Shown: positions 36,520 through 51,388 of the stretch, piece by piece
How the letters are laid out: the number at the start of each line of letters is the position of its first letter
How positions within the stretch are numbered: the stretch's first letter is position 1
DNA from: Candidatus Binataceae bacterium
GTDB lineage: Bacteria; Desulfobacterota; Binatia; Binatales; Binataceae
NCBI GenBank assembly: GCA_035294265.1
Contig: DATGLK010000010.1
Coordinates: 126,858-190,857, forward strand
Reading direction: 5' to 3'
DNA length: 64,000 nucleotides
Program-made: the position numbers and the translations under genes
Notes under the pieces: model-generated
Database searches by the model: none
Told to the model about the DNA's origin: nothing
What the model saw: only the letters and a program-made list of their open reading frames with translations

Positions 36520-37613
36520 CCCCAAAAGCGAACACTGCAAGTCTGCGAATACCACGCTGGATACTGTTGATCGGCGGCGTGGCTGTGATTGGCCTGCTGA
36601 TCTGGTGGAACGGCGCCGGCAAAATCGCACCTGGCTTGGTTAACCAGCGCCCCTCCTATCTTCCAAACCAAGCTGTTGTCGTGGTGTCCGAACAAACGGT
36701 GCCACAGATCTACAATCTGGTGGGGACCGTCGAGTCGGTGACGCCCGTGGAAGCCGCCAGCCGAGTGTCAGCCCGCGTAATCGCGGTTCCAGTCCATGCG
36801 GGACAGCTGGTACATCAGGGCGCGGTGTTGGTGCGACTGGACCCAAGCGGGCTGAAAGCGCAGGTGGCACAAGCGACCGGTGAGCTTGGGATGGCGCAAG
36901 CCGAACTGACAAGGAGCCAAGCAGACTATCGACGCTTTGCGGCATTGGTTAAGCGCGGCTCGGTGACCCCGCACGAATTTGACGCAGCCACCGCGGCCTA
37001 TCACGCGGCCCTGGGTAATGTGAGCCGCGCGACGGCCGCCCTGGCGGTCGCGCGCTCGGCTTTAACGTACGCCACGGTGCGCGCGCCGGTGGACGCGATA
37101 GTGGTGGAGCGGCTGGTGCGCACCGGCGACATGGCCCTACCGGGCCAACCATTGGTAAGGCTCTATGACGACAAGGCGCTTCGGGTTGAAGTGGCAGCAC
37201 CAGAAGAGCTGGCGCGGCAAATCAGGGTTGGCTCGCCGCTTAAGGTCGTGGCCGGCGACGGCGCGCTGGAGCTATCGACCCGGGTCAACGAAATTGTGCC
37301 AGCGGCTGATCCGAGCACGCGCAGCTTCAGCTTGCGAGCTCCCCTGCCTGTTGACCCTGATCTCAAGCCCGGCATGTTCGTCCGGGCGCAGTTCGTTTAC
37401 GGCACCCAAAATATGATTACCCTGCCGCGCTCAGCCATACGGCTTATCGGCCAGCTTGCAACGGTGAACGTCCTGACGCCAGGCGCAGTGCAACTGCGGC
37501 CAGTGGTTCTGGGGCGCGAGTTCAACGACCGCGTAGAAGTCCTAGCAGGTCTTAAGTCCGGCGATCGGGTAATCGCCGGCACTGCGCCGATGGTGGGCAA
37601 TGGCAACCGCTAA
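36516..37613 (+). CDS. RND efflux membrane-fusion protein (HlyD family)
   Basis: N-terminal TM anchor. Coiled-coil hairpin (QAELTRSQADYRRFAALVKRG). Lipoyl and beta-barrel MFP domains. Overlaps neighbouring genes on both sides. Confidence 0.8.
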   Translation: MTPKANTASLRIPRWILLIGGVAVIGLLIWWNGAGKIAPGLVNQRPSYLPNQAVVVVSEQTVPQIYNLVGTVESVTPVEAASRVSARVIAVPVHAGQLVHQGAVLVRLDPSGLKAQVAQATGELGMAQAELTRSQADYRRFAALVKRGSVTPHEFDAATAAYHAALGNVSRATAALAVARSALTYATVRAPVDAIVVERLVRTGDMALPGQPLVRLYDDKALRVEVAAPEELARQIRVGSPLKVVAGDGALELSTRVNEIVPAADPSTRSFSLRAPLPVDPDLKPGMFVRAQFVYGTQNMITLPRSAIRLIGQLATVNVLTPGAVQLRPVVLGREFNDRVEVLAGLKSGDRVIAGTAPMVGNGNR

Positions 37614-40600
37614 CGACGGGCCCGGATTTACCGCCAGGATTGTCGATCTCTTCCTGGGCTCCAATTTGTCGCTCCTATTATTGGTGGCCTCGCTGGCCGC
37701 CGGCGTGGTTGCGCTTGCCGTCACGCCACGCGAGGAAGATCCGCAGATTTCTGTACCGATGGCGGACGTCATCGTGCAGATGCCCGGAGCAAGCGCAGCC
37801 GAGGTCGAAAATCTGGTCACCACCAACCTCGAAAAGCGCCTGTGGGAAATGGACGGCGTCAGTCACATTTACTCGGCCTCGCAGCCCGGGGTGGCGATGG
37901 TGACCGTGCGGTTCAGCGTTGGCTACGACCGCACCAAAGCACTGGTAGAAATTTACAACAAGCTGGAGTCCAACCGCGATGCGGTACCCACCGGCGTAAC
38001 CGGTTGGATTGTCAAACCAGTAAGCATCGACGACGTCCCCATTCTCAGCGTTACCCTATACAGCGCCGAGGTCGATGACGCCATGCTGCGCCGGATTGCC
38101 GACGAAATTATGGAGCGGATGCAGGAGGTGCCCGACACCGGTCGCTCCTTTGTGGTCGGGGGGCGGCCGCGGCAGGTGCGGGTGCTGCTTGACGCCCAGC
38201 GGCTTGCCGCCCATAACCTCAGCGTCCAGGCGCTGCAACAAGCCCTCCAGGGGGCTAACACGAACCTGCGAGTCGGAAGTTTCGCGCGCGACGATCGCCA
38301 GTTCGTGATGGACAGCGGGCCTTTCCTGCGCAATGCCGAGGAAGTGGCCAGCCTGGTAGTGGGGGTGTCCGCTGGCAGGCCGGTCTACCTGCGCGATGTG
38401 GCCCAGGTGATCGACGGCCCTGCCGAGGCCACGACCTACACCAACATCGGCTTCGGCCCAGCGCGCAAATTGCTCTTTGAGGAACCCGGACAATTAAAGC
38501 TTGCGCGACTCGGAGAGCGTAGCGCGATTTATCCCGCGGTAACCATCGCTTTTGCCAAACGCCAGGGCACCAATGCAGTCGCGGTGGCCCAGGGCTTGCT
38601 CGCCAAAATCCAGGCGCTACGCCCGCTGATGCTTCCCTCCAACGTCGGGCTCTTGGTTACGCGCAACTACGGTCAGACCGCCGACGAAAAGGTCAACGAG
38701 CTGGTGCGCGAACTTCTGATCGCCGTGGCAATCATCGCCGTGCTATTGGCCTTTTCGCTCGGTGCGCGCGAGGCCTTGATCGTTGCCATCGCGGTACCGG
38801 TAACCCTGGCAGTGGCGCTATTGGGCAATCTGTTGGCCGGCTACACCATCAATCGCGTCACCCTGTTTGCCTTGATCCTTTCGCTCGGCCTGCTGGTGGA
38901 CGATCCTATTGTGGACGTCGAGAACATTCATCGTCATTTCAAGCTCCGCGAGGTACCGGCGCGCGAGGCCACCCTGATCGCGGTGGACGAGGTCCGCCCG
39001 CCCACCATTCTGGCCACTTTCACGGTGATTGTGGCCTTCATTCCGATGCTGTTCGTGGGCGGCATGATGGGACCGTACATGCGGCCGATGCCCTTCAACG
39101 TACCGCTGGCGATGCTGATGTCACTGATTGTCGCGTTCACGATCACGCCGTGGGCGGCCTTTCACCTGCTCAAGCACGAGTATGACACGCCCCCGGGAGA
39201 CGCGGCCGGCGAGGAGGGTGCGAGCATACGGCGCTGGTACAGGCGGCTGTTGCAGCCGTTGCTGGAGAGTCGGCGCCGCGCGTGGCTGTTTATCTTGGGG
39301 ATAGGTGGCGCATTCGTGCTCTCGATATTGCTGGTTATTGTGGGGCTGGTGCCGGTCAAGATGCTGCCGTTCGATAACAAAAACGAACTCGATCTGGTGA
39401 TCGACATGCCGCAGGACACGCCCCTGGAGGCGACTAACGCAGTCACCCTCGACTTCGAACGGCTACTGGCACGCGTCAACGAGATCACCGACTACGAAGC
39501 TTACGTCGGGACCAATTCGCCTTTCGACTTTAATGGCATGGTTCGGCACTACTATCTGCGTCAGGCGCCATGGCAAGCTGATATCCGAATCCAGCTCGCG
39601 CCTAAAAGCAACCGCCAGCAGTCCTCGCATGAAATCGCGCTGCGGCTGGAACCGTTGGTGCGCGCGATCGCCCGGCGCGATCATGTCCGCCTGGCTAAAA
39701 TAATCGAAGTCCCGCCCGGCCCGCCGGTGCTGGCCTCGGTGGTTGCCGAAATCTACGGCCCGCCGTATGCGGAATACACTCAGCTAATCGAGTATGGACG
39801 CCAACTCAAAGGCGTGTTCGCCAACACCGCGGGCCTGGTGTCGCCCGATGATTTTTCCATAACCCGTGCTCCACGGCTGAAGTTTGTCGTCGATCGGCAG
39901 AAAGCGGCGCTCAACGGCATCACCACCGCCGCCGTCGCCCAAGCGCTGGCGATCGCGCTCGGCGGTCAGTCCGCCGGTACCATCCACGCCGAATCCGAAC
40001 GCGCCCCATTGCTGATCGAAATTAGAATGGCGCGCGCCGCGCGCTCTTCGCTGCAGGGGCTGTTGGCGCTCAAGCTGCGTGGATCCGCCGGTCAGCTAGT
40101 GCCGCTCTCGGAACTGGGTGAAATTGAGCAGACCACCGATGAGCAGCCGATTTATCATAAGGATCTGCGGCGGGTCGCGATGGTAATGGCGGGCACGGCT
40201 GGAATCAGCCCGGTCAACGAAGTGTTATGGCTCGAGGGCCGCACCGCTCGCATGCTCCCCCGCGGCTACTCGATTGTGTGGACCGGGGAAGGCGAATGGC
40301 ACATTACGGTCCAGGTCTTCCGCGACCTGGGCGTGGCCTTCGCCGCCGCACTCTTCTTCATCTACATCCTGCTGGTGGGGCAAACCGGATCGATGGCCAT
40401 GCCGTTGATCATAATGGCGGCAATACCCTTGACACTGGTGGGTATCATGCCGGGGTTCTTTGTCCTGAACCTGCTGACCAATCATCCTGTCGCCGGCTAC
40501 TCCGACCCAACCTTCTTTACCGCCACCGCGATGATCGGAATGATCGCGCTGGCCGGGATCGTGGTTCGCAATTCCATCATCCTGATCGACTTCATCCATC

Positions 40601-40848
40601 TCGGTCTCGCCCGCGGACTCAGCCTGGAGGAAGCCGTGCTGGAGGCTGGTGCCGTGCGCTTTCGCCCCATTGTGCTGACCGCTAGCGCGGCGGTGCTGGG
40701 CTCGATCGTAATTACGCTGGATCCGATCTTCTCGGGGCTGGCCTGGGCCTTTATCTTTGGGATTTTCGCTTCCACCGGCTTTACCCTGCTGGTGGTGCCA
40801 CTGATTTACTACCTCGTTTACGGCGAACCTCGTACAGATGTCCGGTAG
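37600..40848 (+). CDS. RND efflux permease (AcrB/CusA superfamily; subfamily not resolved)
   Basis: 1082-aa protein with 12 TM helices and two large periplasmic loops. Last gene of the OMF-MFP-RND operon. Confidence 0.8.
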   Translation: MATANDGPGFTARIVDLFLGSNLSLLLLVASLAAGVVALAVTPREEDPQISVPMADVIVQMPGASAAEVENLVTTNLEKRLWEMDGVSHIYSASQPGVAMVTVRFSVGYDRTKALVEIYNKLESNRDAVPTGVTGWIVKPVSIDDVPILSVTLYSAEVDDAMLRRIADEIMERMQEVPDTGRSFVVGGRPRQVRVLLDAQRLAAHNLSVQALQQALQGANTNLRVGSFARDDRQFVMDSGPFLRNAEEVASLVVGVSAGRPVYLRDVAQVIDGPAEATTYTNIGFGPARKLLFEEPGQLKLARLGERSAIYPAVTIAFAKRQGTNAVAVAQGLLAKIQALRPLMLPSNVGLLVTRNYGQTADEKVNELVRELLIAVAIIAVLLAFSLGAREALIVAIAVPVTLAVALLGNLLAGYTINRVTLFALILSLGLLVDDPIVDVENIHRHFKLREVPAREATLIAVDEVRPPTILATFTVIVAFIPMLFVGGMMGPYMRPMPFNVPLAMLMSLIVAFTITPWAAFHLLKHEYDTPPGDAAGEEGASIRRWYRRLLQPLLESRRRAWLFILGIGGAFVLSILLVIVGLVPVKMLPFDNKNELDLVIDMPQDTPLEATNAVTLDFERLLARVNEITDYEAYVGTNSPFDFNGMVRHYYLRQAPWQADIRIQLAPKSNRQQSSHEIALRLEPLVRAIARRDHVRLAKIIEVPPGPPVLASVVAEIYGPPYAEYTQLIEYGRQLKGVFANTAGLVSPDDFSITRAPRLKFVVDRQKAALNGITTAAVAQALAIALGGQSAGTIHAESERAPLLIEIRMARAARSSLQGLLALKLRGSAGQLVPLSELGEIEQTTDEQPIYHKDLRRVAMVMAGTAGISPVNEVLWLEGRTARMLPRGYSIVWTGEGEWHITVQVFRDLGVAFAAALFFIYILLVGQTGSMAMPLIIMAAIPLTLVGIMPGFFVLNLLTNHPVAGYSDPTFFTATAMIGMIALAGIVVRNSIILIDFIHLGLARGLSLEEAVLEAGAVRFRPIVLTASAAVLGSIVITLDPIFSGLAWAFIFGIFASTGFTLLVVPLIYYLVYGEPRTDVR

Positions 40849-41635
40849 GCGCGCATTAATCAGACCAGCTCCAGCCAAGCGCGAATCGCACGGCTTGGAA
40901 ATCGCCGATGCGGCGCGGCTCATCGTTGCGGGGGATGAAGCCTCGGCCGCAATTCAGGACCGGCTGTTCGAGCAGCTCGCAATCGTGGGTAAGGCGGTCG
41001 CCAGCAAGCAGCGGCTCAAACTGCTGGAGCTGCTGGCCCAAACCAATCGCACAGTTGAGGCGCTGGCCCGCGAAGCTAATCTGTCCGTGGCCAACGTGTC
41101 GCAGCATCTTCAAGTGCTGCGCGCCGCCGGCATCGTCGAAGCAAACCGAGCGGGCCTTTTCGTCTCGTACCGGTTGGCGGGTCCCGACGTGCTCGCATTA
41201 CTTACAGCTATTCGCTCAGTCGCCGAGAAGCGCCTGGGAGAGATCGATCGCTTGATGCGCTCTTACTTGGCCAATGCCGACGATCTTGAGCCGCTGACCA
41301 ATGCCCAATTGCTGCGAAGACTGCGTACCGGCGACATCATCGTCATCGACGTCAGGCCGGCGGAGGAATACGCCGCAGGCCACTTACCCGGAGCAATCTG
41401 CATGCCGCTCCCTGAGTTGAAGGAGCGCCTTAAGGAACTTCCAACCAACAAAGAGGTGATCGCCTATTGCCGCGGCCCCTACTGTCTGCTCGCACATCGC
41501 GCAGTTGCCCTGTTGCGCCACCGGGGCAGGCGAGCACGCCGTTTGCGCGAAGGATTTCCGCAGTGGCAGGCCGATGGCATGCCAGTCAACAGTGGGCTCG
41601 AACCCGCCGACGACCATAAACGGCCAACTCTCTGA
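40838..41635 (+). CDS. ArsR/SmtB-family HTH regulator fused to a rhodanese domain
   Basis: ArsR HTH (LKLLELLAQTNRTVEALAREANLSVANVSQHLQVLRAAGIV). Rhodanese active-site loop (AYCRGPYC). ATG overlaps the RND stop by 11 nt. Confidence 0.7.
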   Translation: MSGRRALIRPAPAKRESHGLEIADAARLIVAGDEASAAIQDRLFEQLAIVGKAVASKQRLKLLELLAQTNRTVEALAREANLSVANVSQHLQVLRAAGIVEANRAGLFVSYRLAGPDVLALLTAIRSVAEKRLGEIDRLMRSYLANADDLEPLTNAQLLRRLRTGDIIVIDVRPAEEYAAGHLPGAICMPLPELKERLKELPTNKEVIAYCRGPYCLLAHRAVALLRHRGRRARRLREGFPQWQADGMPVNSGLEPADDHKRPTL

Positions 41636-41639
41636 CGCT

Positions 41640-43094
41640 TCAGGGCTCGGCGGGCGGGGCGGAATTGCGCGCGGGAGGCTCGCCTGGAGGCGTCATGGTT
41701 TGCAGAAAATCCACGATCGCATCGACTTCCGACGGACTCAAGTTGCTGCCATAGGCGGGCATGTTACCACCGCCCTGCAGAATTTGACGAATCAGTTCGT
41801 TGCGCGTAAGCCGAGTGGCCACGTTGTCGAGCATCGGACCGCGTTTGCCGCCTTGACCGCCCAGCGCATGGCAGTTGCGACACTGTTTATCCTGGATGAG
41901 CAGCGCCCCCTGCAGTTGCAGCGGTGTGCGCCCCTTGACGTAATCCACAGGAGTTGGCACCGCGCTCCAGGCATCCATCACCGGCGACCAGGGCGAACTG
42001 AGGCCCAGCCAGGTCATCGTGGCAAAGAGCAGAAAGGCCAGAATCACGAAGACCACCGCGAAGGGGCGGCGGCGAAAGCTTTTTTCCCCAGTGCCGGAAT
42101 AAAATGGCAGGCCAATCAGAATGGCAATCAGCACCACCGGCCCGACCAGGATCAAAAAAGTCTCGGTCCAGGGCGGAAGTAGGGCGAAGAGGGCGAACAA
42201 CCACAGAAAAAAAATGTCAGGGCGGGGCACGGTTTCGATGATCGACGGATCGGGCCGCCCGTTGGGGCCAATCGGGCCGGCCAGCGCCGCCACAATCAGC
42301 AAAGCCAACACGATCAGCCCGGCAAAAATCAGATCTTTTTGCGCCGCCCAAGGAAAAAAGCTCTCGCCGTCGCGCTCCACCAGCTCGTGATATTCCCGGA
42401 GATAGGTCTCGCGCTTAACCACCCGACCCGGTACCGGCCACTCATTGATCCCTAGGCGCAAAACCAAAAACAAGTGCAGGCCGACAAAGCCCAGCAAGAT
42501 GCCGGGAATCACGAAAACGTGCAGGGCGAAGAAGCGCGACAACGTCTCGCCCGCGATAATCGGACCGCCCAGCAGCAGATGGACAAGACGCGGTCCAAGC
42601 AGCGGCACTCGTCCCATGATCGCGGCCGCGATGCCCAGTCCCCAGTAGGCGTCTTGGTCAAAGCGCAGCACCTGCCCGGTGAAGGCCATCCCCAGCGTGC
42701 ACAGCAGCAGAACCACGCCAGCCAGCCAGGTCAGCTCGCGCGGATACTTGTAAGCGCCGAATAGGAAGACCTGGATCAGATGGATGAACATCAGGGCCAC
42801 CATGAAATTAGAGCCCCAACCATGCAGCGCACGTAGGTACCAGCCCAGCGGCTCCTGGTAATTGAGATAAATCAAGCTGTTCCAGGCGCGGTCGGCGGCA
42901 GGTACGTAAACCGTGGCCAGGCAGATCCCGGTGACGATCTGCAGGATCAGTACGGTAAAGGTCGCGCTACCAAAGACATACCACCAACTGGCCGAGTTGC
43001 GCGGTACTCGATGGCGGGCGGCTTCCTCGATCGCCCCCGCCAGATGGGTACGTTCCTCGAGCCATCCGCCGATCGCTCTTAACCAGCGCTGCAT
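41640..43094 (-). CDS. qcrB: Cytochrome b of a bc-type complex with fused C-terminal mono-heme cytochrome c domain
   Basis: Cytochrome b fold with conserved heme-ligand His residues across 8+ TM helices. C-terminal CRNCH heme-c motif. Confidence 0.8.
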   Translation of the reverse strand: MQRWLRAIGGWLEERTHLAGAIEEAARHRVPRNSASWWYVFGSATFTVLILQIVTGICLATVYVPAADRAWNSLIYLNYQEPLGWYLRALHGWGSNFMVALMFIHLIQVFLFGAYKYPRELTWLAGVVLLLCTLGMAFTGQVLRFDQDAYWGLGIAAAIMGRVPLLGPRLVHLLLGGPIIAGETLSRFFALHVFVIPGILLGFVGLHLFLVLRLGINEWPVPGRVVKRETYLREYHELVERDGESFFPWAAQKDLIFAGLIVLALLIVAALAGPIGPNGRPDPSIIETVPRPDIFFLWLFALFALLPPWTETFLILVGPVVLIAILIGLPFYSGTGEKSFRRRPFAVVFVILAFLLFATMTWLGLSSPWSPVMDAWSAVPTPVDYVKGRTPLQLQGALLIQDKQCRNCHALGGQGGKRGPMLDNVATRLTRNELIRQILQGGGNMPAYGSNLSPSEVDAIVDFLQTMTPPGEPPARNSAPPAEP

Positions 43095-43109
43095 TCTCTC
43101 ATCCGTCCG

Positions 43110-43640
43110 CTAAACCTGAGTCTGACCCAAGGTGGGCAACTCGCCCGCACGCACCCAGAGCTGCCCATTGCTAATTTTGTAGGAATAGCGATAGAGCGGG
43201 CGCGGGGGCGGTCCCGAAGCCCGCCGGCCGTCGGCGTAATAGACTCCGCCATGACAGGGGCACATGAACAACTGGGATTCCTGGAACCAGCGCACCGGAC
43301 AGCCCAAATGGGTGCAATTGATGGCAAAGATTTGAAATTTATCCTGCGACAGGCGGCGCACCCAGCAGGGAATGTCAGCGGTGGAACCGTCCCAGGGTTT
43401 GACGAAGGGATTGCGATAGGTCGCCAGAAGGGTTTGGCCAAGGGGAAAATTCGTGACCGGCCCCAGCGCGATCCAGGTCAAGTAAGTGCGGCGCAAAGCC
43501 GGCGCCAGGAGATAACCCAGCACTGGAATGGCGAACAACAACGCAACGCCCGCGTTGAGCAGCGCCGCCAGCTTGAGCAACGCGCGTCGGGTGGGTTGTT
43601 CGTGCCGCTGGCCGTCGTGGGCCTGGGTCTCCTCACTCAT
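43110..43640 (-). CDS. qcrA: Rieske [2Fe-2S] iron-sulfur subunit of a bc-type complex
   Basis: CTHLGC ... CPCHGG boxes. N-terminal TM/Tat-like region (RRALLKLAALLNAG). ATG overlaps the upstream diheme cytochrome c stop (ATGA). Confidence 0.8.
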   Translation of the reverse strand: MSEETQAHDGQRHEQPTRRALLKLAALLNAGVALLFAIPVLGYLLAPALRRTYLTWIALGPVTNFPLGQTLLATYRNPFVKPWDGSTADIPCWVRRLSQDKFQIFAINCTHLGCPVRWFQESQLFMCPCHGGVYYADGRRASGPPPRPLYRYSYKISNGQLWVRAGELPTLGQTQV

Positions 43641-44368
43641 CTGCTGCTCCTGGAAAGTTGCGCGCCGACATCGCTGCTGCCTAGCGCTGGCGGCCGTTGG
43701 GCGGCCAGCCAAGTCACGATATCGGTGACTTGCGTCGCGTCGAGTGGATGGCCCGCTGAATAGCCGCGCCAATTAGGATGGCCCAAATCGGGACGCCCTG
43801 CCACGATAACGGCAGCCAAATGCCGGTCGCTGACCAGGGTCAGATAGTCGGGATTGACAATCGCGCCGGGAGTGGCGCCACCGCGCCCATCTGGTCCGTG
43901 GCAGGAGGCGCAAAAGGCGAGATAATCCTGGCGCCCTTGCCGCGGATTGCCTTCGGCGCCGGCGAAAACCGGCGCACCGACCGCCGAGCTACCTTGCCCC
44001 CACCGCTGGCTAATCCCCTCGACCAGAATAGCGATTTGGCGGTCAGTGAGCGTACCGCCGGCGGCAAGCGAAAACCCGGGCATCGCCGTTCCGGGCCGGC
44101 CGCGCGCGATTAAATCGCGCAGCACCGAGGTTCCGAGCCAATTCACCAGCACCGGATTGTCCAGCGCCATCGCCGCGCCGAAGCGGCCATCCACACCGTG
44201 ACATCCAGCGCAATTTTCGCCATAGAGCTGAGCGAAGTCGGAAACTGCGCTGGGCTGAACCGGCCGCTGGCTGGGACGCGGGCGGCCAGGCATCCCGTTG
44301 CACGCGCCCAACGCCAGCGCCCACAGCAGTGCCGCGATTCGCGAAACAACAGAGTAAGGATGGTTCAT
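43637..44368 (-). CDS. qcrC: Diheme cytochrome c (QcrC/cytochrome cc-like)
   Basis: Two CxxCH motifs (CAGCHG, CASCHG). Signal/lipobox-like N-terminus (LALGAC). Start taken at MNHPY. Confidence 0.65.
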   Translation of the reverse strand: MNHPYSVVSRIAALLWALALGACNGMPGRPRPSQRPVQPSAVSDFAQLYGENCAGCHGVDGRFGAAMALDNPVLVNWLGTSVLRDLIARGRPGTAMPGFSLAAGGTLTDRQIAILVEGISQRWGQGSSAVGAPVFAGAEGNPRQGRQDYLAFCASCHGPDGRGGATPGAIVNPDYLTLVSDRHLAAVIVAGRPDLGHPNWRGYSAGHPLDATQVTDIVTWLAAQRPPALGSSDVGAQLSRSSR

Positions 44369-45198
44369 CACTGCTGGGGCCCGCGCAAGCCCGGGGCCTC
44401 CAATCCGCTGCGAACCGCGAACGGCATGAATTGAAGCGTATGAATCCGTTCGGCGCGGGCCGTGACCAATCCCGCGGTTAGGCCAAAGCCGAATTGGCAG
44501 AGCACGAACCACCCCCAGTCGATGCGCTGATCGAGCACTGGGTTAATCACGCTCAGGCTGGCCCACAGAAAGCCGCTCCACATCAGCGGCGCGATAACCC
44601 CACCGAAGAGCACTGGTCGGCGCGGCAGCATCGGGAGCAGTACGCCGTAGAGCAGGCCAACCAGCAGCGAGACCAGGGCGTGAATCAGCGTGGCGATGAG
44701 CAGAATTTCCAGATTGAAACGCGCCAGCTCCGAGAACCTGGCGTTGGCCAGTCCGGGCATCACGCTGGCGGCCAGAATGTTGATCGGATACCAGAGGCTG
44801 CCGTAACGCGCCCAGCCGTACAGCCCTGCCATCACCGCCATGACCACTCCGCCAGCCAACCCGCCTTTGATTCCCGCCGAATATGGATAGATCTCTAGCG
44901 GGAGGACCGCGCGATTGCCCGCCTCGCCGATTTCCAGCCGCGCCGCCGCCGGATGCGGCTGCCAGGCAATCGCCGGCTGGCGTGGGAGTTCGATCGCCTC
45001 GCAATGCTCTTGCGGTATCACCTCGCGCGCCCAACCCACCGCCCCGGCAATCGCCAAGACCGCGCCCACCAGGCTCACACTCAAGTTGAGGACCAAACCA
45101 GCGAAAAGGAACGCCAGCCCCAGCGCCATGAGCATCGGCCAAGCGGTAGGCGCCGGCACCTCGATTGTTGGCTGGGTCTGTGCTTCTCGTTCGGCCAT
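44368..45198 (-). CDS. Polytopic membrane protein of unknown function inside the oxidase-bc cluster (possible caa3 assembly/accessory subunit)
   Basis: 277 aa with at least 6 predicted TM helices. No recognisable cofactor motifs. Position between ctaE and qcrC. Confidence 0.45.
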   Translation of the reverse strand: MAEREAQTQPTIEVPAPTAWPMLMALGLAFLFAGLVLNLSVSLVGAVLAIAGAVGWAREVIPQEHCEAIELPRQPAIAWQPHPAAARLEIGEAGNRAVLPLEIYPYSAGIKGGLAGGVVMAVMAGLYGWARYGSLWYPINILAASVMPGLANARFSELARFNLEILLIATLIHALVSLLVGLLYGVLLPMLPRRPVLFGGVIAPLMWSGFLWASLSVINPVLDQRIDWGWFVLCQFGFGLTAGLVTARAERIHTLQFMPFAVRSGLEAPGLRGPQQ

Positions 45199-45211
45199 CG
45201 CCTTGTCCCCT

Positions 45212-45814
45212 TCAGCGGCCCACCACGTAGACCGTAAGGAAGACCACCACCCATACGCAATCGACAAAATGCCAGTACCACGAGAGCATCTCGATCCGCT
45301 CAGCGTGGCGGCGCTCCACACTGCCGCGCAAGGTAAGCAGCAAGACGATGGCCAGACCAATCAGTCCCACGCTGACATGGAAAGCGTGCAAGCCGACCAG
45401 CGAATAATAGGTGGTGCCAAAGAGGTTGGTGTGGATGGTCAAGCCGTCGCGGTATATCAGCTCGTACCATTCACGCGCAGTGCCCAGGAGGAATTCCAAT
45501 CCCAACAACCAGGTTATCAACCACCACATTGCGAAGCGGTCGCGCGCACCGGCCCGCAAATTGCGCATCGCCAGCACGATCGTCAGGCTGCTCGAGAGCA
45601 GACAGATAGTGTTGACGATCGGTGGGCTGAGCACATCACGCGGATAGGGACCGGTCAGGCTTTTGCCGATATAAAACACATAGGCCGCAACGAAGATCGA
45701 GAAGAAGGCGCTCTCGGTCAGGATGAGGCAAAGCATCCCAACCCGCCCGCGCGCCGGACGCTCTGACTCGGTGAACGCGTACACCGCCATCGCTGGTGCC
45801 GCTGACACGCTCAT
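45212..45814 (-). CDS. ctaE: Cytochrome c oxidase subunit III
   Basis: COX III helix pattern (WWLITWLLGLEFLLGTAREW, GLHAFHVSVG, WYWHFVDCVW). ATGA overlap with the ctaD stop. Confidence 0.8.
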   Translation of the reverse strand: MSVSAAPAMAVYAFTESERPARGRVGMLCLILTESAFFSIFVAAYVFYIGKSLTGPYPRDVLSPPIVNTICLLSSSLTIVLAMRNLRAGARDRFAMWWLITWLLGLEFLLGTAREWYELIYRDGLTIHTNLFGTTYYSLVGLHAFHVSVGLIGLAIVLLLTLRGSVERRHAERIEMLSWYWHFVDCVWVVVFLTVYVVGR

Positions 45815-47490
45815 TCGTATCTCCAATCGGGGTCGTCGGGATGTTTCAAATCCCACAGTGGGCGGCGACTTTGAACCACCGGCAGCTGCGCGAAATTGTA
45901 TTCAGGCGGGGGCGAGCTGGTGGTCCATTCTAGGGTCCAGGCATCCCAGGGATCGTCGCCAGCCAGAGTCCCGTCGTACAACGAGTGGACAACATTAATC
46001 AGAAACAACAACACTGCCACGGCTTGAAAAGCCACGCCGATACTGGCGATCAAATTGAACAGCTCCAAGCCGCGGCCGGCCTGATAAATATAGATTCGCC
46101 GCGGCATCCCATACATCCCGGCCAGATGGAGCGGATCGAAGGTCAGATGGAAGCCGATCAGGAGCAGCCAGAAGTGCCATCGCCCCAGCCGCTCGCTTAG
46201 CATTCGCCCGGTCGCCTTGGGAAACCAATAGTAGATGGCGGCGAAGATCATGAAGAGGATTGCGCCGACCAGGACGTAATGGAAATGGGCGACGACAAAG
46301 TAGGTATCGGTAAGCTGCCAGTCGAAGGGCGCCACCGCCAGAATGATGCCGGTCAAGCCGGCGATCAGAAACTGAAAGAGAAAGCCCAGACAGAATAGCA
46401 TGGGCACCCGGAATCGCAGCTTACCGCCCCAGATCGTGGCCAGCCAATTGAAGATCTTAATCCCGGTTGGCACGGCGATGAGCATCGTCGAGGTGACGAA
46501 AAAAGCGTTGCCCGCCGGGCTCATCCCGACCGCGAACATATGGTGAGCCCACACCCCCAGGCTGATGAAGCCGATCGCGACCGAGGCCGCGACCATCGCC
46601 TGGTAACCGAAGATCACCTTGCGCGAGAAAACTGGGATTATCTCAGAGGCAAAGCCGAACGCGGGTAAGACCAGGATGTAAACCTCGGGGTGGCCGAAGA
46701 TCCAGAAGAAATGCTGCCAAAGCAGGGCCGAGCCACCGGCCTGAGTGTCGAAGAAATGCGCGCCCAAGTAGCGATCCAGCAGCAGCATCACTTGGGCCGC
46801 GGACAGCGGCGGCAACGCGACCAACATCAGGAAAGCGGTCACCAGGCTCAGCCAGACCAGCACGGGCATCTTGTTCAGACTCATTCCCTCGCAGCGCAGG
46901 CTCAAGGTGGTCGCGACGATGTTAATCGCGGCGGCCGTCGAGCCCACGCTGGTCAGGAAGATGCTCAGAATCCAGTAATCGGTACTGTTGCCGCGCGAAA
47001 ACGCACGCTCGGTCAGCGGCGCGTACGCAAACCAGCCTACGTTGGGCGCACTGCCCGCGCCGTACAGCCCTTCGGCACCCAGGTAGCTGAAATACAGCAG
47101 CAGCGCGCCGAACAACCACAACCAGAAGCCGAAGGCGTTAAGCCGGGGAAAGGCCATGTCCCGCGCGCCGATCATCAAGGGTAGCAGGTAGTTGATGAAG
47201 CCGATAAGAATCGGCATCCCCACCAGAAATACCATCGAGGTGCCGTGCATCGTCAACAGGCGATTGAAGACCGCGGGCGGGACCAGATGATTGTCGGGTA
47301 GCGCCAACTGCATACGCATCGTCGCCGCCTGCAATCCGGCGATCACGAAGAACAGCAGCCCCCCGCCGATATACATCAAGCCTAGCCGCTTATGATCGAC
47401 CGTCACCACCCATTGGTGGATACGCTCCAAGCGGGGCAAACGGACCGCCTCCGCCTCCAACGTCAGCGCGGGTTCGAAACTACCGGCCAT
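45811..47490 (-). CDS. ctaD: Cytochrome c oxidase subunit I (heme-copper oxidase catalytic subunit)
   Basis: 559 aa with 12 TM helices. Canonical His ligands (WFFGHPEVY, HHMF, VAHFHYVL). Confidence 0.9.
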   Translation of the reverse strand: MAGSFEPALTLEAEAVRLPRLERIHQWVVTVDHKRLGLMYIGGGLLFFVIAGLQAATMRMQLALPDNHLVPPAVFNRLLTMHGTSMVFLVGMPILIGFINYLLPLMIGARDMAFPRLNAFGFWLWLFGALLLYFSYLGAEGLYGAGSAPNVGWFAYAPLTERAFSRGNSTDYWILSIFLTSVGSTAAAINIVATTLSLRCEGMSLNKMPVLVWLSLVTAFLMLVALPPLSAAQVMLLLDRYLGAHFFDTQAGGSALLWQHFFWIFGHPEVYILVLPAFGFASEIIPVFSRKVIFGYQAMVAASVAIGFISLGVWAHHMFAVGMSPAGNAFFVTSTMLIAVPTGIKIFNWLATIWGGKLRFRVPMLFCLGFLFQFLIAGLTGIILAVAPFDWQLTDTYFVVAHFHYVLVGAILFMIFAAIYYWFPKATGRMLSERLGRWHFWLLLIGFHLTFDPLHLAGMYGMPRRIYIYQAGRGLELFNLIASIGVAFQAVAVLLFLINVVHSLYDGTLAGDDPWDAWTLEWTTSSPPPEYNFAQLPVVQSRRPLWDLKHPDDPDWRYE

Positions 47491-47505
47491 CGAGTTCTCT
47501 CCCCG

Positions 47506-48645
47506 CTAGCGCAGGCTCGCCAAGTAGGCGACCACCTGATTCAGATCGGCGGGCGACAGGTTCATCGCCGGCATTAGCACGTCGGGCTTGATGGTAGCTG
47601 GGTTGTCAACCCACACATGCAGATGGGCCGGGCTATTGAGCGCAGCGCCCGCGCCAATGGTGGCACGACTCATAAGGTGAGTCAGATCGGGACCAAAACG
47701 GCCATTGGCAACGGTGCCACGGATAGTATGGCAATTGACGCAGGCGGTGTGAAGGAACAGTTGGCGACCCGCCGCGGTACTGGCATCACGCAACGCCGGA
47801 CGCTGCTGCGCCGCCACCCACTGAGCGAACTGGGCGGGCGGCTGCGCGACCACCCGGATCAGCATCAACGCGTGCTCGCTGCCGCAAAACTCCCCGCATT
47901 GCCCCAGGTAGGTCCCCGCCCGATGGGGATCGATCCACATCTCATTGCGCCGATTGGGGATAACGTCGGTCTTGCCCGCCAACCGCGGCACCCAAAAGCT
48001 GTGCGCGACGTCAGCCGACTCCAAGGTCAGCAAGGTCGGCCGAGGATGGGCCGGATCGCTCACTGGAACGTGCAACTCGTTGGCCGTGACAATCCCCAGG
48101 CTGGGATAGCGAAATTCCCACCACCATTGATGGCCGATCACACGCACCCGCAACGCATCGGTCGGTTGCGGCGCCGCGTGCACGATGTAGATGGTGCGCC
48201 CGGTGATCAAAGTCAGCACAAACGCAATCAGCACCGGCAGCGTGGTCCAGGCAAGCTCGATCGGATTACTGCCGTAAACCTGGGGCGGCTCGCGACCGTC
48301 ATCGCCGGCGCGCTGGCGGTAGCGAATAATCGCGTAGCTCAGCAGGCCAGCCACCACCAGAAAGATTGCGCCGGTAATACTGAGTACGAAATAGGCCAGA
48401 TGCGCGATCGCCGCGGCCGGGGTCGCAACTGGCGCAAAGATGTTGTTGGGCATCAGCTTGGCGTTGGCGGCGCCGGTGCCCCAATCCTGGCCCCAGGCCA
48501 TCGCCACCCGCGCCAGGATGGTCATGCTCGCAAGCGCGGCGGCGGCCCGCCTTCCAAACCCACGCGCCGTCAAATCACGCTCCGCTGGCGCCCCGGATCC
48601 GCGCCCGGCTGTCGGGCCATTGCTCGCCGCGGTTGGAGGTCGCAC
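47506..48645 (-). CDS. ctaC: Cytochrome c oxidase subunit II with C-terminal cytochrome c domain (caa3-type); start uncertain
   Basis: CuA site (H...CGEFCGSEHALM). C-terminal CVNCH heme-c motif. The longest ORF starts at a GTG; an internal ATG (48525) is an alternative. Confidence 0.8.
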   Translation of the reverse strand: MRPPTAASNGPTAGRGSGAPAERDLTARGFGRRAAAALASMTILARVAMAWGQDWGTGAANAKLMPNNIFAPVATPAAAIAHLAYFVLSITGAIFLVVAGLLSYAIIRYRQRAGDDGREPPQVYGSNPIELAWTTLPVLIAFVLTLITGRTIYIVHAAPQPTDALRVRVIGHQWWWEFRYPSLGIVTANELHVPVSDPAHPRPTLLTLESADVAHSFWVPRLAGKTDVIPNRRNEMWIDPHRAGTYLGQCGEFCGSEHALMLIRVVAQPPAQFAQWVAAQQRPALRDASTAAGRQLFLHTACVNCHTIRGTVANGRFGPDLTHLMSRATIGAGAALNSPAHLHVWVDNPATIKPDVLMPAMNLSPADLNQVVAYLASLR

Positions 48646-49736: not shown

Positions 49737-49855
49737 ACTCCAAGTCGGGGCTAAGCGCCGTACCAGACAGTCATTTCTACTTACGCAGGAACCGGCGGCT
49801 TGGCAAATCCGTGGACCGTTGACACCTTGTCAGGCTTTGCACACAGTTGCACATC

Positions 49856-51382
49856 ATGCGCTACGGCTTCGTGATCGACCAGGAACGCTGCATCGGATGC
49901 CATGCCTGCACGGTGGCCTGCAAGGAAGAGCACAACGTCCCGGTGGGCGTGTTTCGGACCTGGGTCAAGTACATCGAGAAGGGAACTTTCCCCGCGGTAC
50001 AACGCCATTTCGGCGTGATGCGGTGCAATCACTGCGACAACGCGCCCTGTATAGAGATCTGTCCGACCAAGGCGCTCTTTCGCCGCGACAACGGTGTGGT
50101 CGATTTCGACTCGCAGCGCTGCATCGGCTGCAAAAGCTGCATGCAAGCCTGTCCCTACGACGCCCTCTATATTGATCCAGCAAGTCACACCGCCGCCAAG
50201 TGCAATTTCTGCGCTCATCGCCTGGAGCTCGATTTGGCGCCCGCCTGCGTCATCGTCTGTCCCACCCATGCGATTATCGCCGGTGATTTGGACGCGCCCG
50301 AAAGCGAGATCGGCCGCACCGTCGCCAGCCGCCAGGTGGTCAGCCGCAAGCCCGAAAAGGCCACCCAGCCCAAGCTTTTTTACATAGGGATCGACGGCGA
50401 CCTGCTCAACCCCGGCGCGCCCGCGGCGCAGCCTACTTACCTGTGGGCCGACAAACAAAAAGATGGAAATATCTACACTTTGTCGACTGACGAGGCGACG
50501 CTGCCGCCCGCCGGCTCGCGTGAAGTCTATAACGTCTCCCATCCAGCCCCCTGGGGCGCCAAAATCGCCGCCTACCTGTGGACCAAGTCGATCGCGGCGG
50601 GTGTCACGCTGGTGGCGGCCCTGCTGATGGGGCTTAAGGTCGCAGACCAGGCGCGGCTGTTTGGAATCGCCACCCCCGCGCTGGCCTTGGGATGGAGCGC
50701 GCTCACCGGATTGCTGCTTACCATCGACCTCAAGCGGCCCGAACGCTTTTATTTCCTGCTGACGAAATCGAATTTCAGATCCTGGCTGGTCCTGGGAGCT
50801 TATTTTTTGGGCGGTTACGGCCTGTGCGCCATGGCATGGCTGATTGTAGGGCTATTCGCTCTCGAACCTCCCGCTTGGCTGATCGGACTGACGGCGTTGA
50901 TGGCGATCGGCACTGCGGCTTATTCGGGCTTCCTGTTCGCTCAGGCCAAGGGGCGCGATTTGTGGCAATCGCCGCTTTTCCCCTGGCATCTGGTGATCCA
51001 GGCGCTGGTCGCGGGCGCCGCGATGCTCATCATGTTCGCGGTCGCCGTCGGTTCGGACCGCTTGCTGGGAGCATTGCAAGCCGTCCTGGCCACGGCGCTG
51101 GTGCTGGACCTGCTGATGGTTCTAACCGAAGTCTACGCCGTGCCGCATAACCAGGACGCGCGCCTCGCGGTAGATTTGTTGAAGAGCGGCACGCTGGCCA
51201 AGCGGTTTTGGGGCGGCGCAGCCGGTTTGGGCGTGGTTGTGCCGCTGTTTGCGATGGCGATGGGCGCGAGCTTCGGCGGCGCGGTAGTGGCCGCGCCGCT
51301 CGCCGCCGCTGCCGCGTTGGCCGGCCTGTGGCAATACGAATTACTGTGGCTGGCGGCCGGGCAGGCCGCACCCTTGAGCTAG
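49856..51382 (+). CDS. 4Fe-4S ferredoxin-type electron-transfer subunit fused to an NrfD/PsrC-like integral membrane anchor (CISM family)
   Basis: Four Cys clusters (CIGCHACTVAC, CNHCDNAPCIEICP, CIGCKSCMQACP, CNFCAHR...CVIVCP) followed by about 8 TM helices. No signal peptide. ATG at 49856 preferred over the ORF-finder TTG at 49847. Confidence 0.75.
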   Translation: MRYGFVIDQERCIGCHACTVACKEEHNVPVGVFRTWVKYIEKGTFPAVQRHFGVMRCNHCDNAPCIEICPTKALFRRDNGVVDFDSQRCIGCKSCMQACPYDALYIDPASHTAAKCNFCAHRLELDLAPACVIVCPTHAIIAGDLDAPESEIGRTVASRQVVSRKPEKATQPKLFYIGIDGDLLNPGAPAAQPTYLWADKQKDGNIYTLSTDEATLPPAGSREVYNVSHPAPWGAKIAAYLWTKSIAAGVTLVAALLMGLKVADQARLFGIATPALALGWSALTGLLLTIDLKRPERFYFLLTKSNFRSWLVLGAYFLGGYGLCAMAWLIVGLFALEPPAWLIGLTALMAIGTAAYSGFLFAQAKGRDLWQSPLFPWHLVIQALVAGAAMLIMFAVAVGSDRLLGALQAVLATALVLDLLMVLTEVYAVPHNQDARLAVDLLKSGTLAKRFWGGAAGLGVVVPLFAMAMGASFGGAVVAAPLAAAAALAGLWQYELLWLAAGQAAPLS

Positions 51383-51388
51383 GTGCCA

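Follow-up and report, generated by a model that had tools for sequence, protein, structure and literature searches.

A probable caa3 oxidase-cytochrome bc operon in Binatia with a conserved six-helix membrane protein encoded next to a dihaem cytochrome c

Gene content and organization of the locus

We analysed a window of 64,000 nucleotides from a Candidatus Binataceae genome (contig DATGLK010000010.1), in which seven open reading frames on the minus strand occupy positions 41640-48645. The original prediction had assigned these reading frames to a caa3-type oxidase, a cytochrome bc-type complex and a membrane protein between them, and all seven lie at the coordinates it gave. Pfam and NCBIfam support six of the seven:

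47506..48645, minus strand: ctaC, oxidase subunit II (COX II) with a C-terminal class I cytochrome c domain (caa3 type); TIGR02866 CoxB, Pfam COX2, COX2_TM and Cytochrom_C, motifs
45811..47490, minus strand: ctaD, oxidase subunit I (COX I), A1 type; TIGR02891, Pfam COX1, motifs
45212..45814, minus strand: ctaE, oxidase subunit III (COX III), short form; Pfam COX3
44368..45198, minus strand: six-helix membrane protein of 276 amino acids in the 'ctaF-like' position; homologues and sub-threshold profile matches
43637..44368, minus strand: petC/qcrC-like dihaem cytochrome c, predicted lipoprotein; two Pfam c-type domains, CAGCH and CASCH
43110..43640, minus strand: petA/qcrA, Rieske [2Fe-2S] protein; Pfam Rieske, CTHLGC and CPCHGG
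41640..43094, minus strand: petB/qcrB, unsplit cytochrome b with a C-terminal class I cytochrome c domain; Pfam Cytochrome_B and Cytochrome_CBB3

The predicted gene identities are thus borne out by protein families and cofactor motifs, and the same is true of the tight packing that fits a single transcript. As read from the sequence, no intergenic gap exceeds 15 nt and three junctions overlap. The junctions between the COX I and COX III genes and between the dihaem cytochrome c and Rieske genes are ATGA overlaps, and the 276-amino-acid protein and the dihaem cytochrome c meet in TGATG (a one-base overlap), or in GTGA if the latter starts at GTG. Two strict ATGA junctions and a third overlap fit the 'several' ATGA junctions of the original prediction. 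The three remaining junctions have gaps of 13-15 nt. Inside the cluster, terminator-like and promoter-like sites did not outnumber those expected from shuffled sequence. The next gene 3' of cytochrome b encodes an ArsR-rhodanese protein on the opposite strand, and ctaG is absent from this side of the cluster in the window. Taken together, the seven genes very probably have the identities listed and form one operon for a quinol-to-oxygen branch. Stoichiometric co-translation, also put forward previously, may follow from this arrangement.

Subunit II scored above the NCBIfam cutoff with TIGR02866 CoxB (172.7 bits) and matched Pfam COX2, COX2_TM and, at amino acids 291-378, Cytochrom_C. It contains the CuA ligands (CGEFCGSEHALM) and the haem motif CVNCH. 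Its maximal open reading frame begins at a GTG at position 48645, and homologues align only from about residue 50; judged from this alignment, the true start probably lies some 40-50 codons further in. Subunit I was matched by TIGR02891 (706 bits, above cutoff) and by Pfam COX1 (E = 1e-156), and alignment to bovine COX1 located the A1-type glutamate in GHPEVY, the D-channel in GARDMAFPRLN and the K-channel in PTGIKIF. Subunit III matched Pfam COX3 (E = 1.4e-19) over profile positions 78-257 of 258; its maximal open reading frame runs from 45856, and its start is likely to be the ATG at 45814 that overlaps the ctaD stop codon. The maximal reading frames of COX II, COX III, the dihaem cytochrome c and the Rieske protein all likely begin upstream of the true starts.

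The signal peptide of the dihaem cytochrome c (ATG at 44368) ends in LALGA/C, which predicts a lipoprotein, and the NCBIfam model that fitted this protein best, actinobacterial QcrC (cutoff 200), gave 39 bits. The Rieske protein carries a twin-arginine signal (TRRALLK) and the motifs CTHLGC and CPCHGG, and matched the b6f and proteobacterial Rieske models of NCBIfam, all below cutoff. Cytochrome b (Pfam Cytochrome_B, E = 2e-44) consists of a b6-like N-terminal part and a subunit-IV-like part, followed by a c-type domain with the haem motif CRNCH (Cytochrome_CBB3 at amino acids 402-464, within a Cytochrome_CBB3/Cytochrom_C region at amino acids 396-467). The N-terminal part was best matched by the cytochrome b6 model PRK03735 (E = 4e-55) in NCBIfam and by b6 and Pseudomonas aeruginosa cytochrome b chains in the PDB. 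In our own reading of the sequence, the haem ci-binding cysteine of b6-type proteins is replaced by valine. In the PDB comparison, the c-domain had no counterpart among solved cytochrome b chains. All 73 homologues scored keep its haem motif, 63 of them as CRNCH.

Conservation of the gene order and relation to described respiratory chains

Loci for comparison were chosen solely by similarity to the 276-amino-acid protein. The conserved synteny on which the original prediction depended was found at all 80 genome loci, drawn from Binatia and from several classes within Acidobacteriota, where the genes for COX II with its c-domain, COX I, COX III, the 276-amino-acid protein, the dihaem cytochrome c, the Rieske protein and cytochrome b-c follow each other on one strand, up to the contig ends. 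A Planctomycetota chromosome (locus L085) has the identical order in an operon that ends with Caa3_CtaG, and three further, more distant metagenome contigs keep the COX III gene, the gene for the 276-amino-acid protein, the dihaem cytochrome c gene and, in part, the Rieske gene. At every locus examined, the gene for the 276-amino-acid protein immediately precedes the dihaem cytochrome c gene, and the pet genes come next where the contig continues.

The arrangement is not unusual: it is already described as the 'bc1-A1 caa3 superoperon' of Acidobacteria, with the order ctaC-ctaD-ctaE-'ctaF-like'-petC-petA-petB(-ctaG) (Trojan et al., 2021, mSystems, PMC8407424). There, the gene between ctaE and petC is tabulated as a 'ctaF-like' subunit IV; in cultured Acidobacteria the superoperon is transcribed down to nanomolar O2, and a supercomplex was proposed (PMC8407424). 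The Binatia locus shares with it the seven-gene order, the A1-type caa3 oxidase and the gene between ctaE and petC. MAGs of those acidobacterial orders encode a copy of the 276-amino-acid protein, 50-56% identical, at the same position; the 'ctaF-like' genes of the cultured strains (e.g., ACP_2439) are equated here with this family through their position and these MAG loci rather than by direct alignment. The differences are the host, a member of Binatia, and the lack of ctaG after cytochrome b in the window. Since ctaG follows petB in four of the five superoperons listed (PMC8407424), it is not strictly defining. Literature searches on respiration in Binatia and for other accounts of the superoperon returned only Trojan et al. 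(2021). The layout itself is therefore not new, and the Binatia locus extends a described operon to another phylum.

The original prediction also likened the locus to the actinobacterial ctaE-qcrCAB operon. This holds for the petC-petA-petB order, which is qcrCAB-like, but the proteins do not belong to the bcc-aa3 family: all scores against the actinobacterial NCBIfam models were far below the cutoffs (given in brackets), with 39 (200) for QcrC, 116 (500) for QcrB, 33 (275) for QcrA, 129 (250) for CtaC, 618 (880) for CtaD and 98 (190) for CtaE, and solved actinobacterial QcrB chains were among the weakest PDB matches to the cytochrome b of the window. With the bcc-aa3 supercomplex known from cryo-EM of Mycobacterium and Corynebacterium, the locus has in common a dihaem cytochrome c encoded before the Rieske protein and cytochrome b and directly downstream of ctaE, a CtaF-like hairpin, and the concept of a haem wire that links the Rieske cluster to CuA without a carrier. 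It differs in that cytochrome b and subunit II each bear an extra c-haem domain, that the dihaem protein is a predicted lipoprotein and that all genes lie in one operon, whereas in actinobacteria ctaD and ctaC-ctaF are found elsewhere in the genome.

A parallel for the c-type haems exists in Bacillus, where a b6c complex (QcrABC), a membrane-bound cytochrome c550 or c551 and a caa3 oxidase form a chain of a fused c-domain, a carrier cytochrome c and the c-domain of the oxidase. In both chains, cytochrome b has a b6-like N-terminal part and the subunit-IV-like helices are followed by a c-haem domain; the intermediate cytochrome c is attached to the membrane, and the caa3 oxidase has a c-domain of its own. 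In the Binatia locus, however, cytochrome b is unsplit and has valine in place of the haem ci cysteine, the operon itself encodes the intermediate carrier, which is dihaem, and the gene order is C-A-B instead of A-B-C. Given this generally known chain, the 'unusually long' c-haem wire claimed before was overstated, and a wire of four haems would be an extension and not a new principle.

The 276-amino-acid membrane protein

The gene between ctaE and the dihaem cytochrome c encodes a membrane protein, as predicted, of 276 amino acids plus a stop codon and not 277. Its layout comprises a two-helix hairpin (amino acids ~19-57), a cytoplasmic loop (58-105) and a four-helix C-terminal domain (~106-247), and its lysine and arginine counts agree with a six-helix topology with both termini inside. 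An identical copy is annotated as a hypothetical protein in a Candidatus Binataceae MAG. The family is large, with more than 7900 homologues found and 1647 clusters at 50% identity, and its conserved residues include R96, W136, N140, H173, S177, Y184, P189, P192, N219-P220, W228 and Q235. A copper or haem site made up of H173, C234 and M120 was considered and rejected, as distant members have Ser or Ala in place of C234. This leaves H173 conserved without an explanation.

The absence of recognisable motifs noted in the original prediction holds in so far as no family matched above threshold; it does not hold for the N-terminal hairpin, which repeatedly matches the Pfam families Cyt_c_ox_IV and DUF7541 below threshold. 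Cyt_c_ox_IV (PF12270, the family of actinobacterial CtaF; gathering threshold 26.9 bits) aligned to the window protein at 17.4 bits, covering only amino acids 19-59 and profile positions 85-125 of 132. Of 28 family members, 24 show this sub-threshold match (lowest E-value 4.5e-6), and one distant member reaches 26.8 bits. NCBIfam returned no match with the 276-amino-acid protein, a search of PDB sequences with the family profile gave one spurious match (E = 0.53) and left the CtaF chains of supercomplex structures unmatched even at E <= 10, and a Foldseek search of the PDB gave nothing at E <= 0.001. No well-known unrelated family was thus found in Pfam, NCBIfam or the PDB, by sequence or by fold.

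For the C-terminal domain, DUF1440 (PF07274; cutoff 34.7 bits) was matched at 11.9-24.8 bits in seven of eight Planctomycetota relatives (best E-value 2.5e-5), while the Binatia and Acidobacteriota member set gave no Pfam match to it. Comparison of the family profile with the YagU family by hhalign gave a score of 36.1 (E = 1.3e-4, probability 54%); none of the 22 controls, made by reversing or shuffling, exceeded 22.9. The signal is seen only between profiles, as alignment of the family to a single YagU sequence was uninformative (probability 1.9%). Both families have an H-x3-S-x6-Y...P spacing across two helices. The C-terminal domain is probably a distant relative of DUF1440/YagU, an inner-membrane family on which a literature search yielded mainly unrelated papers. 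All Pfam scores stayed below the gathering threshold, however, and YagU differs in lacking a CtaF-like hairpin and in its unrelated genomic context.

Two further features of the family bear on its function. In Planctomycetota the C-terminal domain is tandemly duplicated. Moreover, two independent metagenome contigs encode the protein and the dihaem cytochrome c as one in-frame fusion (P0196 at locus L081 and P0155 at locus L082, with ~50% mutual identity). In both fusions the lipobox segment is kept as a linker helix with its cysteine retained, so the C-terminus of the 276-amino-acid protein must be cytoplasmic. These two are the clean fusions among the 150 representatives listed; a third (P0206) looks frameshifted. 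At L082, the fused gene is accompanied by a Rieske gene, and cytochrome b does not come next.

Possible roles of the 276-amino-acid protein

We lean towards an explanation in which one operon encodes a quinol-to-oxygen branch and the 276-amino-acid protein is a stoichiometric accessory subunit of it. In this branch, electrons from quinol would pass at the Qo site to the Rieske [2Fe-2S] cluster, then to three c-haems, one in the domain fused to cytochrome b and two in the lipoprotein (no order among them being implied), and from there by way of the c-haem of subunit II, CuA and haem a to haem a3-CuB and O2. Whether the bc and caa3 complexes form a stable physical supercomplex is, on these sequences, evenly balanced.

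In the reading that we lean towards, the N-terminal hairpin of the protein would dock on the oxidase like the hairpin of subunit IV (CtaF), and its four-helix DUF1440-like domain would hold or position the dihaem lipoprotein at the periplasmic face. If the dihaem cytochrome c were held in this way, the two complexes could exchange electrons without a freely diffusing carrier. The hairpin matches, the two fusions, the cytoplasmic C-terminus that they require and the overlap with the cytochrome c start codon speak for this reading; the sub-threshold level of all CtaF and DUF1440 similarities, the small number of clean fusions and the lack of a following cytochrome b gene at L082 speak against it. 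A more far-reaching proposal, which we make tentatively and regard as rather doubtful, is that the protein is a bridging subunit: the hairpin would bind the oxidase and the four-helix module would clamp the lipoprotein, giving an obligate carrier-free supercomplex with a wire of four c-haems.

Alternatively, the protein may be a subunit IV of the caa3 oxidase in enlarged form. It would then bind subunits I and III only and serve neither the bc complex nor the dihaem cytochrome, and bc and caa3 would be separate enzymes sharing an operon. The position of the gene directly 3' of ctaE, the recurrent Cyt_c_ox_IV matches of the hairpin, the JGI name 'Cytochrome c oxidase subunit IV' for one member (P0017) and the 'ctaF-like' entry for the gene in the same position (PMC8407424) agree with this. 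We consider it unlikely, as it leaves unexplained the conserved C-terminal domain of ~150 amino acids and its duplication in Planctomycetota, the in-frame fusions to the dihaem cytochrome c, and the finding that the gene of this cytochrome, with the pet genes after it, is the direct neighbour at every locus examined.

A maturation or assembly factor that handles haem, copper or the lipoprotein cytochrome and is absent from the finished enzyme would fit the operon position equally well. Assembly genes are common inside cox operons (e.g., Caa3_CtaG at L085), the window has no ctaG adjoining the operon, and the conserved polar intramembrane residues H173, Q235, N140 and S177 are of the kind expected at a ligand or cofactor site. 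However, C234 is the only cysteine nearby and its replacement in distant members means that there is no conserved Cys/His/Met copper site; the protein has no similarity to known assembly families in Pfam and NCBIfam, is also present where Caa3_CtaG is present, and is fused to a redox subunit, which is more typical of a structural partner. This alternative is quite unlikely, and for the narrower choice between subunit and assembly factor the sequence evidence tips slightly to a subunit.

That the protein is a YagU/DUF1440-type stress or transport protein merely co-located with respiratory genes, as the sub-threshold DUF1440 matches, the JGI label 'YagU' on some Planctomycetota relatives and the hhalign score above all controls could suggest, is highly improbable given its invariant operon position in three phyla, the overlap with the neighbouring gene, the CtaF-like hairpin, the fusion to cytochrome c and the unrelated genes that adjoin yagU in Escherichia coli.

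If the 276-amino-acid protein is indeed a bridging subunit, the architecture would be common to Binatota, Acidobacteriota and Planctomycetota and unlike the actinobacterial and ACIII-type supercomplexes, and the DUF1440 fold would obtain its first assigned role. A supercomplex held by this protein would represent a third structural solution in bacteria for coupling a complex III-type enzyme to complex IV, and it would be amenable to cryo-EM in cultured Acidobacteria or Planctomycetes. Soils and sediments harbour Binatia, Acidobacteriota and Planctomycetota in abundance, and the operon is probably the main aerobic branch of these bacteria. The analysis also sharpens the description of a widespread membrane protein family (~1650 clusters at 50% identity).

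The Qo motif of the cytochrome b-c fusion

Fusions of cytochrome b to a class I cytochrome c have been described as a clade in Acidobacteria, Planctomycetes, Nitrospira, Verrucomicrobia and Firmicutes (Kao and Hunte, 2014, PMC4122944). The protein in the window resembles these in the class I cytochrome c fused C-terminally to an unsplit cytochrome b, and differs in its Qo motif. The motifs PEWY and PDWY were not matched: the Qo motif is PDIF in the window, and among the 73 relatives scored PDFF and PDYF predominate beside other variants without tryptophan. PDIF, PDFF and PDYF were not found in the text of Kao and Hunte (2014), where the tryptophan of the motif is reported to be 96% conserved (PMC4122944). 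This tryptophan is thus replaced both in the cytochrome b of the window and in its relatives.

A conserved seven-gene respiratory cluster

Seven consecutive open reading frames occupy positions 41640 to 48645 on the minus strand, six of which were assigned by Pfam and NCBIfam. Several of the maximal open reading frames listed here begin upstream of the likely true starts.

Genes of the respiratory cluster, in order of transcription
47506-48645, minus strand: COX II, with transmembrane and CuA domains and a C-terminal class I cytochrome c domain; TIGR02866 above cutoff
45811-47490, minus strand: COX I; TIGR02891, 706 bits
45212-45856, minus strand: COX III, short form (Pfam/NCBIfam)
44368-45198, minus strand: membrane protein of 276 amino acids
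43637-44512, minus strand: dihaem cytochrome c, with two c-type domains and two CxxCH motifs
43110-43772, minus strand: Rieske protein, with CTHLGC and CPCHGG
41640-43094, minus strand: cytochrome b, with a class I cytochrome c domain (CRNCH) after the core

The COX II protein carries the motifs CGEFCGSEHALM and CVNCH. From our own reading of the sequences, COX I shows the A1-type pattern of GHPEVY glutamate, D-channel and K-channel residues, a lipoprotein signal that ends in LALGA|C is present in the dihaem cytochrome, and the Rieske protein carries a twin-arginine signal (TRRALLK). As for the junctions, likewise read from the sequence, the COX I/COX III and dihaem cytochrome c/Rieske pairs overlap by ATGA, the gene of the 276-aa protein and that of the dihaem cytochrome overlap by TGATG, and the remaining three junctions are gaps of 13-15 nt. 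Terminator-like and promoter-like matches within the cluster were not commoner than in shuffled sequence. The gene assignments, motifs and junctions thus bear out the original prediction of a seven-gene minus-strand cluster, including a membrane protein between COX III and the dihaem cytochrome, although this protein is 276 and not 277 amino acids long. Over window positions 42001-48000 the AT skew of the plus strand rises to +0.19 to +0.26, compared to about 0-0.07 elsewhere, which is what T-rich coding of membrane proteins on the minus strand would be expected to produce and not a separate feature.

The family alignment of the 276-aa protein was scanned against one genome per species, which gave 121 confirmed relatives, and the best 80 of the 121 were kept. 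These loci were picked solely by similarity to the 276-aa protein. They belong to Binatia, to Acidobacteriota (Terriglobia, Bryobacterales, Vicinamibacteria and Thermoanaerobaculia) and to one MAG labelled Acidimicrobiia. A tblastn search with the seven window proteins recovered the identical gene set and order on a single strand in all 80 loci, to the limits of the contigs, and poor synteny, which would have spoken against the prediction, was not found. A 7.8-Mb chromosome of Planctomycetota has the order COX2c-COX1-COX3-276-aa homologue-dihaem c-(53 aa)-Rieske-cytochrome b-c-Caa3_CtaG, where COX2c and cytochrome b-c carry c-haem domains. In seven loci (L008, L012, L028, L045, L054, L077 and the Planctomycetota locus L085) cox or cytochrome b genes are broken up into separate tblastn segments or gene calls; in L085, for example, the gene call for COX1 covers just 124 aa. 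Such splits in MAG loci most likely stem from assembly frameshifts, and apparent fusions such as that in the homologue P0206 should therefore be treated with caution.

The window has the same layout as the gene table of an acidobacterial arrangement previously termed a "superoperon", which lists ctaC, ctaD, ctaE, "ctaF-like" (subunit IV), petC, petA, petB and mostly ctaG with consecutive locus tags in four strains (Trojan et al., PMC8407424). In that study, superoperon expression was measured down to nanomolar O2 and a respiratory supercomplex was suggested as possible. Cytochrome b clades with a class I cytochrome c on the C-terminus have been described from Acidobacteria, Planctomycetes, Nitrospira, Verrucomicrobia and Firmicutes (Kao and Hunte, 2014, PMC4122944). 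The novelty thus lies in the Binatia host and not in the operon or the b-c fusion. The cluster is a real, well-conserved operon of an already described kind, in a further phylum. The "ctaF-like" proteins of the cultured strains are consistent with membership of the 276-aa family, equated by position and by the acidobacterial MAG loci rather than by direct alignment. The JGI name of the homologue P0017, "Cytochrome c oxidase subunit IV", with its precomputed PF12270 match, fits this equation.

Family and predicted topology of the 276-aa protein

A hypothetical protein with an identical sequence is recorded for a Candidatus Binataceae MAG, and the 276-aa protein has more than 7900 homologues, nearly all unnamed, in a 90%-clustered database. 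In an exhaustive profile search of a 50%-clustered library, 1647 clusters reached E <= 1e-3 and 909 of them E <= 1e-10. Conservation within the family is strong: the columns of a 28-member alignment have a mean identity of 71%. The 276-aa family is genuine, widespread and uncharacterised.

The protein was originally described as having no recognisable motifs, which did not hold entirely: its Pfam matches, all sub-threshold, lie in amino acids 15-59 and are to DUF7541 and the actinobacterial CtaF family Cyt_c_ox_IV. Because the Cyt_c_ox_IV match recurs in 24 of the 28 family members (best E-value 4.5e-6), the N-terminal two-helix hairpin is plausibly CtaF-like, though below the family threshold. 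An NCBIfam search gave no match for the protein, and a PDB search with the family profile found no chain, solved actinobacterial supercomplexes included.

An AlphaFold2 model (pLDDT 72.7; helices mostly 80-93) consists of the hairpin, a disordered loop and four more long helices. Lysine and arginine, counted in 90 members of the family, are abundant in the 58-105 loop, the turn at 191-194 and the C-terminal tail and sparse in segments 133-162 and 219-227, and this pattern points to a six-helix topology with both termini inside. Residues conserved as far as the Planctomycetota branch include R96, W136, N140, H173, S177, Y184, P189, P192, N219-P220, W228 and Q235. A cysteine-based metal site was also considered; the replacement of C234 by Ser or Ala in distant members speaks against it.

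The C-terminal four-helix domain is probably, though not provably, a distant relative of DUF1440/YagU, as judged from profile comparisons. The Pfam DUF1440 model gave below-threshold matches in 7 of 8 Planctomycetota members (best E-value 2.5e-5), five of which were matched in two separate stretches. An hhalign comparison of a 90-sequence alignment of the family with a 101-sequence alignment seeded with E. coli YagU gave a probability of 54% (E = 1.3e-4, score 36.1), with the confident region covering the helices with H173, S177, Y184 and P192, while one reversed and 21 block-shuffled control alignments scored at most 22.9. As YagU has no known mechanism, the link names a fold and assigns no function. 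Several Planctomycetota homologues are labelled 'YagU involved in acid resistance' by JGI.

Duplications and fusions

In some of the longer matches (P0129, P0182) the C-terminal domain is tandemly duplicated. This duplication accounts for the length of the distant Planctomycetota members found in a second database search, which are about 420-440 aa long. Contigs of the longer matches retain the order COX3-276-aa homologue-dihaem c-Rieske. Two further long matches (P0196 and P0155) are fused cleanly and in frame to the dihaem cytochrome c and keep the lipobox segment as a linker helix.

Duplicated-domain homologues and natural fusions
L083, 204-1517, and L085, 9001-10308: duplicated-domain homologues (proteins P0129, P0182 and P0271-P0390)
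L081, 711-2300, and L082, 32-1909 (metagenome contigs): in-frame fusions of the membrane protein with the dihaem cytochrome c

The fusions require the very topology predicted from the lysine and arginine counts: with the C-terminus in the cytoplasm, one further helix puts the cytochrome domains in the periplasm. The L082 fusion has an extra N-terminal zinc-ribbon extension of about 125 aa, and its gene is followed by a Rieske gene without a cytochrome b after it.

Predicted electron path and role of the 276-aa protein

What the sequence shows is the set of parts, among them a quinol oxidase module of Rieske protein and cytochrome b and a proton-pumping oxidase of A1 type. Electrons would pass from the Rieske cluster to three intermediate c-haems, in an order not fixed by sequence, and from these to the COX II c-haem, CuA, haem a and the binuclear centre. 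The first acceptor is likelier to be the domain fused to cytochrome b, by analogy with Bacillus QcrC as generally known; comparison with actinobacterial QcrC would allow the dihaem protein in this place. Each gene set provides four c-type haems (one on cytochrome b, two on the lipoprotein and one on COX II). The proposed "unusually long haem wire" is an extension of known designs.

For the 276-aa protein, the favoured reading is an accessory subunit, present in stoichiometric amounts, that would link the oxidase to the dihaem lipoprotein. This reading is suggested by the CtaF-like hairpin, by a gene position that does not vary, by the overlap of its stop codon with the start codon of the cytochrome gene, and by the fusions. 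Less likely alternatives are an ordinary subunit IV of larger size, an assembly factor, or a YagU-like protein unrelated to respiration. For this family the present analysis adds a domain architecture, a predicted topology and a fusion-based partner prediction; interest is modest unless a supercomplex containing the 276-aa protein is demonstrated.

Relation to actinobacterial complexes and a Qo-site variant

The suggested likeness to the actinobacterial bcc-aa3 operon holds for gene layout, in that the dihaem cytochrome gene lies beside ctaE and precedes the Rieske and cytochrome b genes. However, every actinobacterial NCBIfam model scores far under its cutoff, additional c-domains are present on both cytochrome b and COX II, and solved actinobacterial QcrB chains rank among the poorest matches to the cytochrome b, which places the cluster outside the actinobacterial family. 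The N-terminal part of the cytochrome b is closest to b6-type proteins, and the fused c-domain is absent from every solved cytochrome b.

The Qo-site motif of cytochrome b is normally PEWY or PDWY. The window protein has PDIF (amino acids 292-295; window 42211-42222, minus strand), and 73 homologous cytochromes b from the 80 loci mostly have PDFF, otherwise PDYF, PDFV, PDPF, PDLF or PDSF. The tryptophan is therefore replaced throughout the Binatia/Acidobacteriota clade. This residue was reported to be 96% conserved, and the variant is absent from the six major patterns of the same study (Kao and Hunte, 2014, PMC4122944).

Neighbouring genes

On the plus strand, opposite to the respiratory operon and about 1.2 kb upstream of it (49847-54229), lie genes for a 511-aa protein, in which a PsrB-like 4Fe-4S dicluster domain is fused to an NrfD/PsrC-type membrane domain, and for a 948-aa molybdopterin oxidoreductase without an obvious twin-arginine signal; the stop of the former overlaps the start of the latter. 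The fused layout is unusual for a Psr/Nrf-type complex. At 40838-41635 (plus strand) a 265-aa protein combines an ArsR-family HTH with a rhodanese domain. The start of its gene overlaps the end of a gene for a 1082-aa AcrB-type RND transporter (37600-40848), and the gene is convergent with the 3' end of cytochrome b, with 4 nt between the stop codons.
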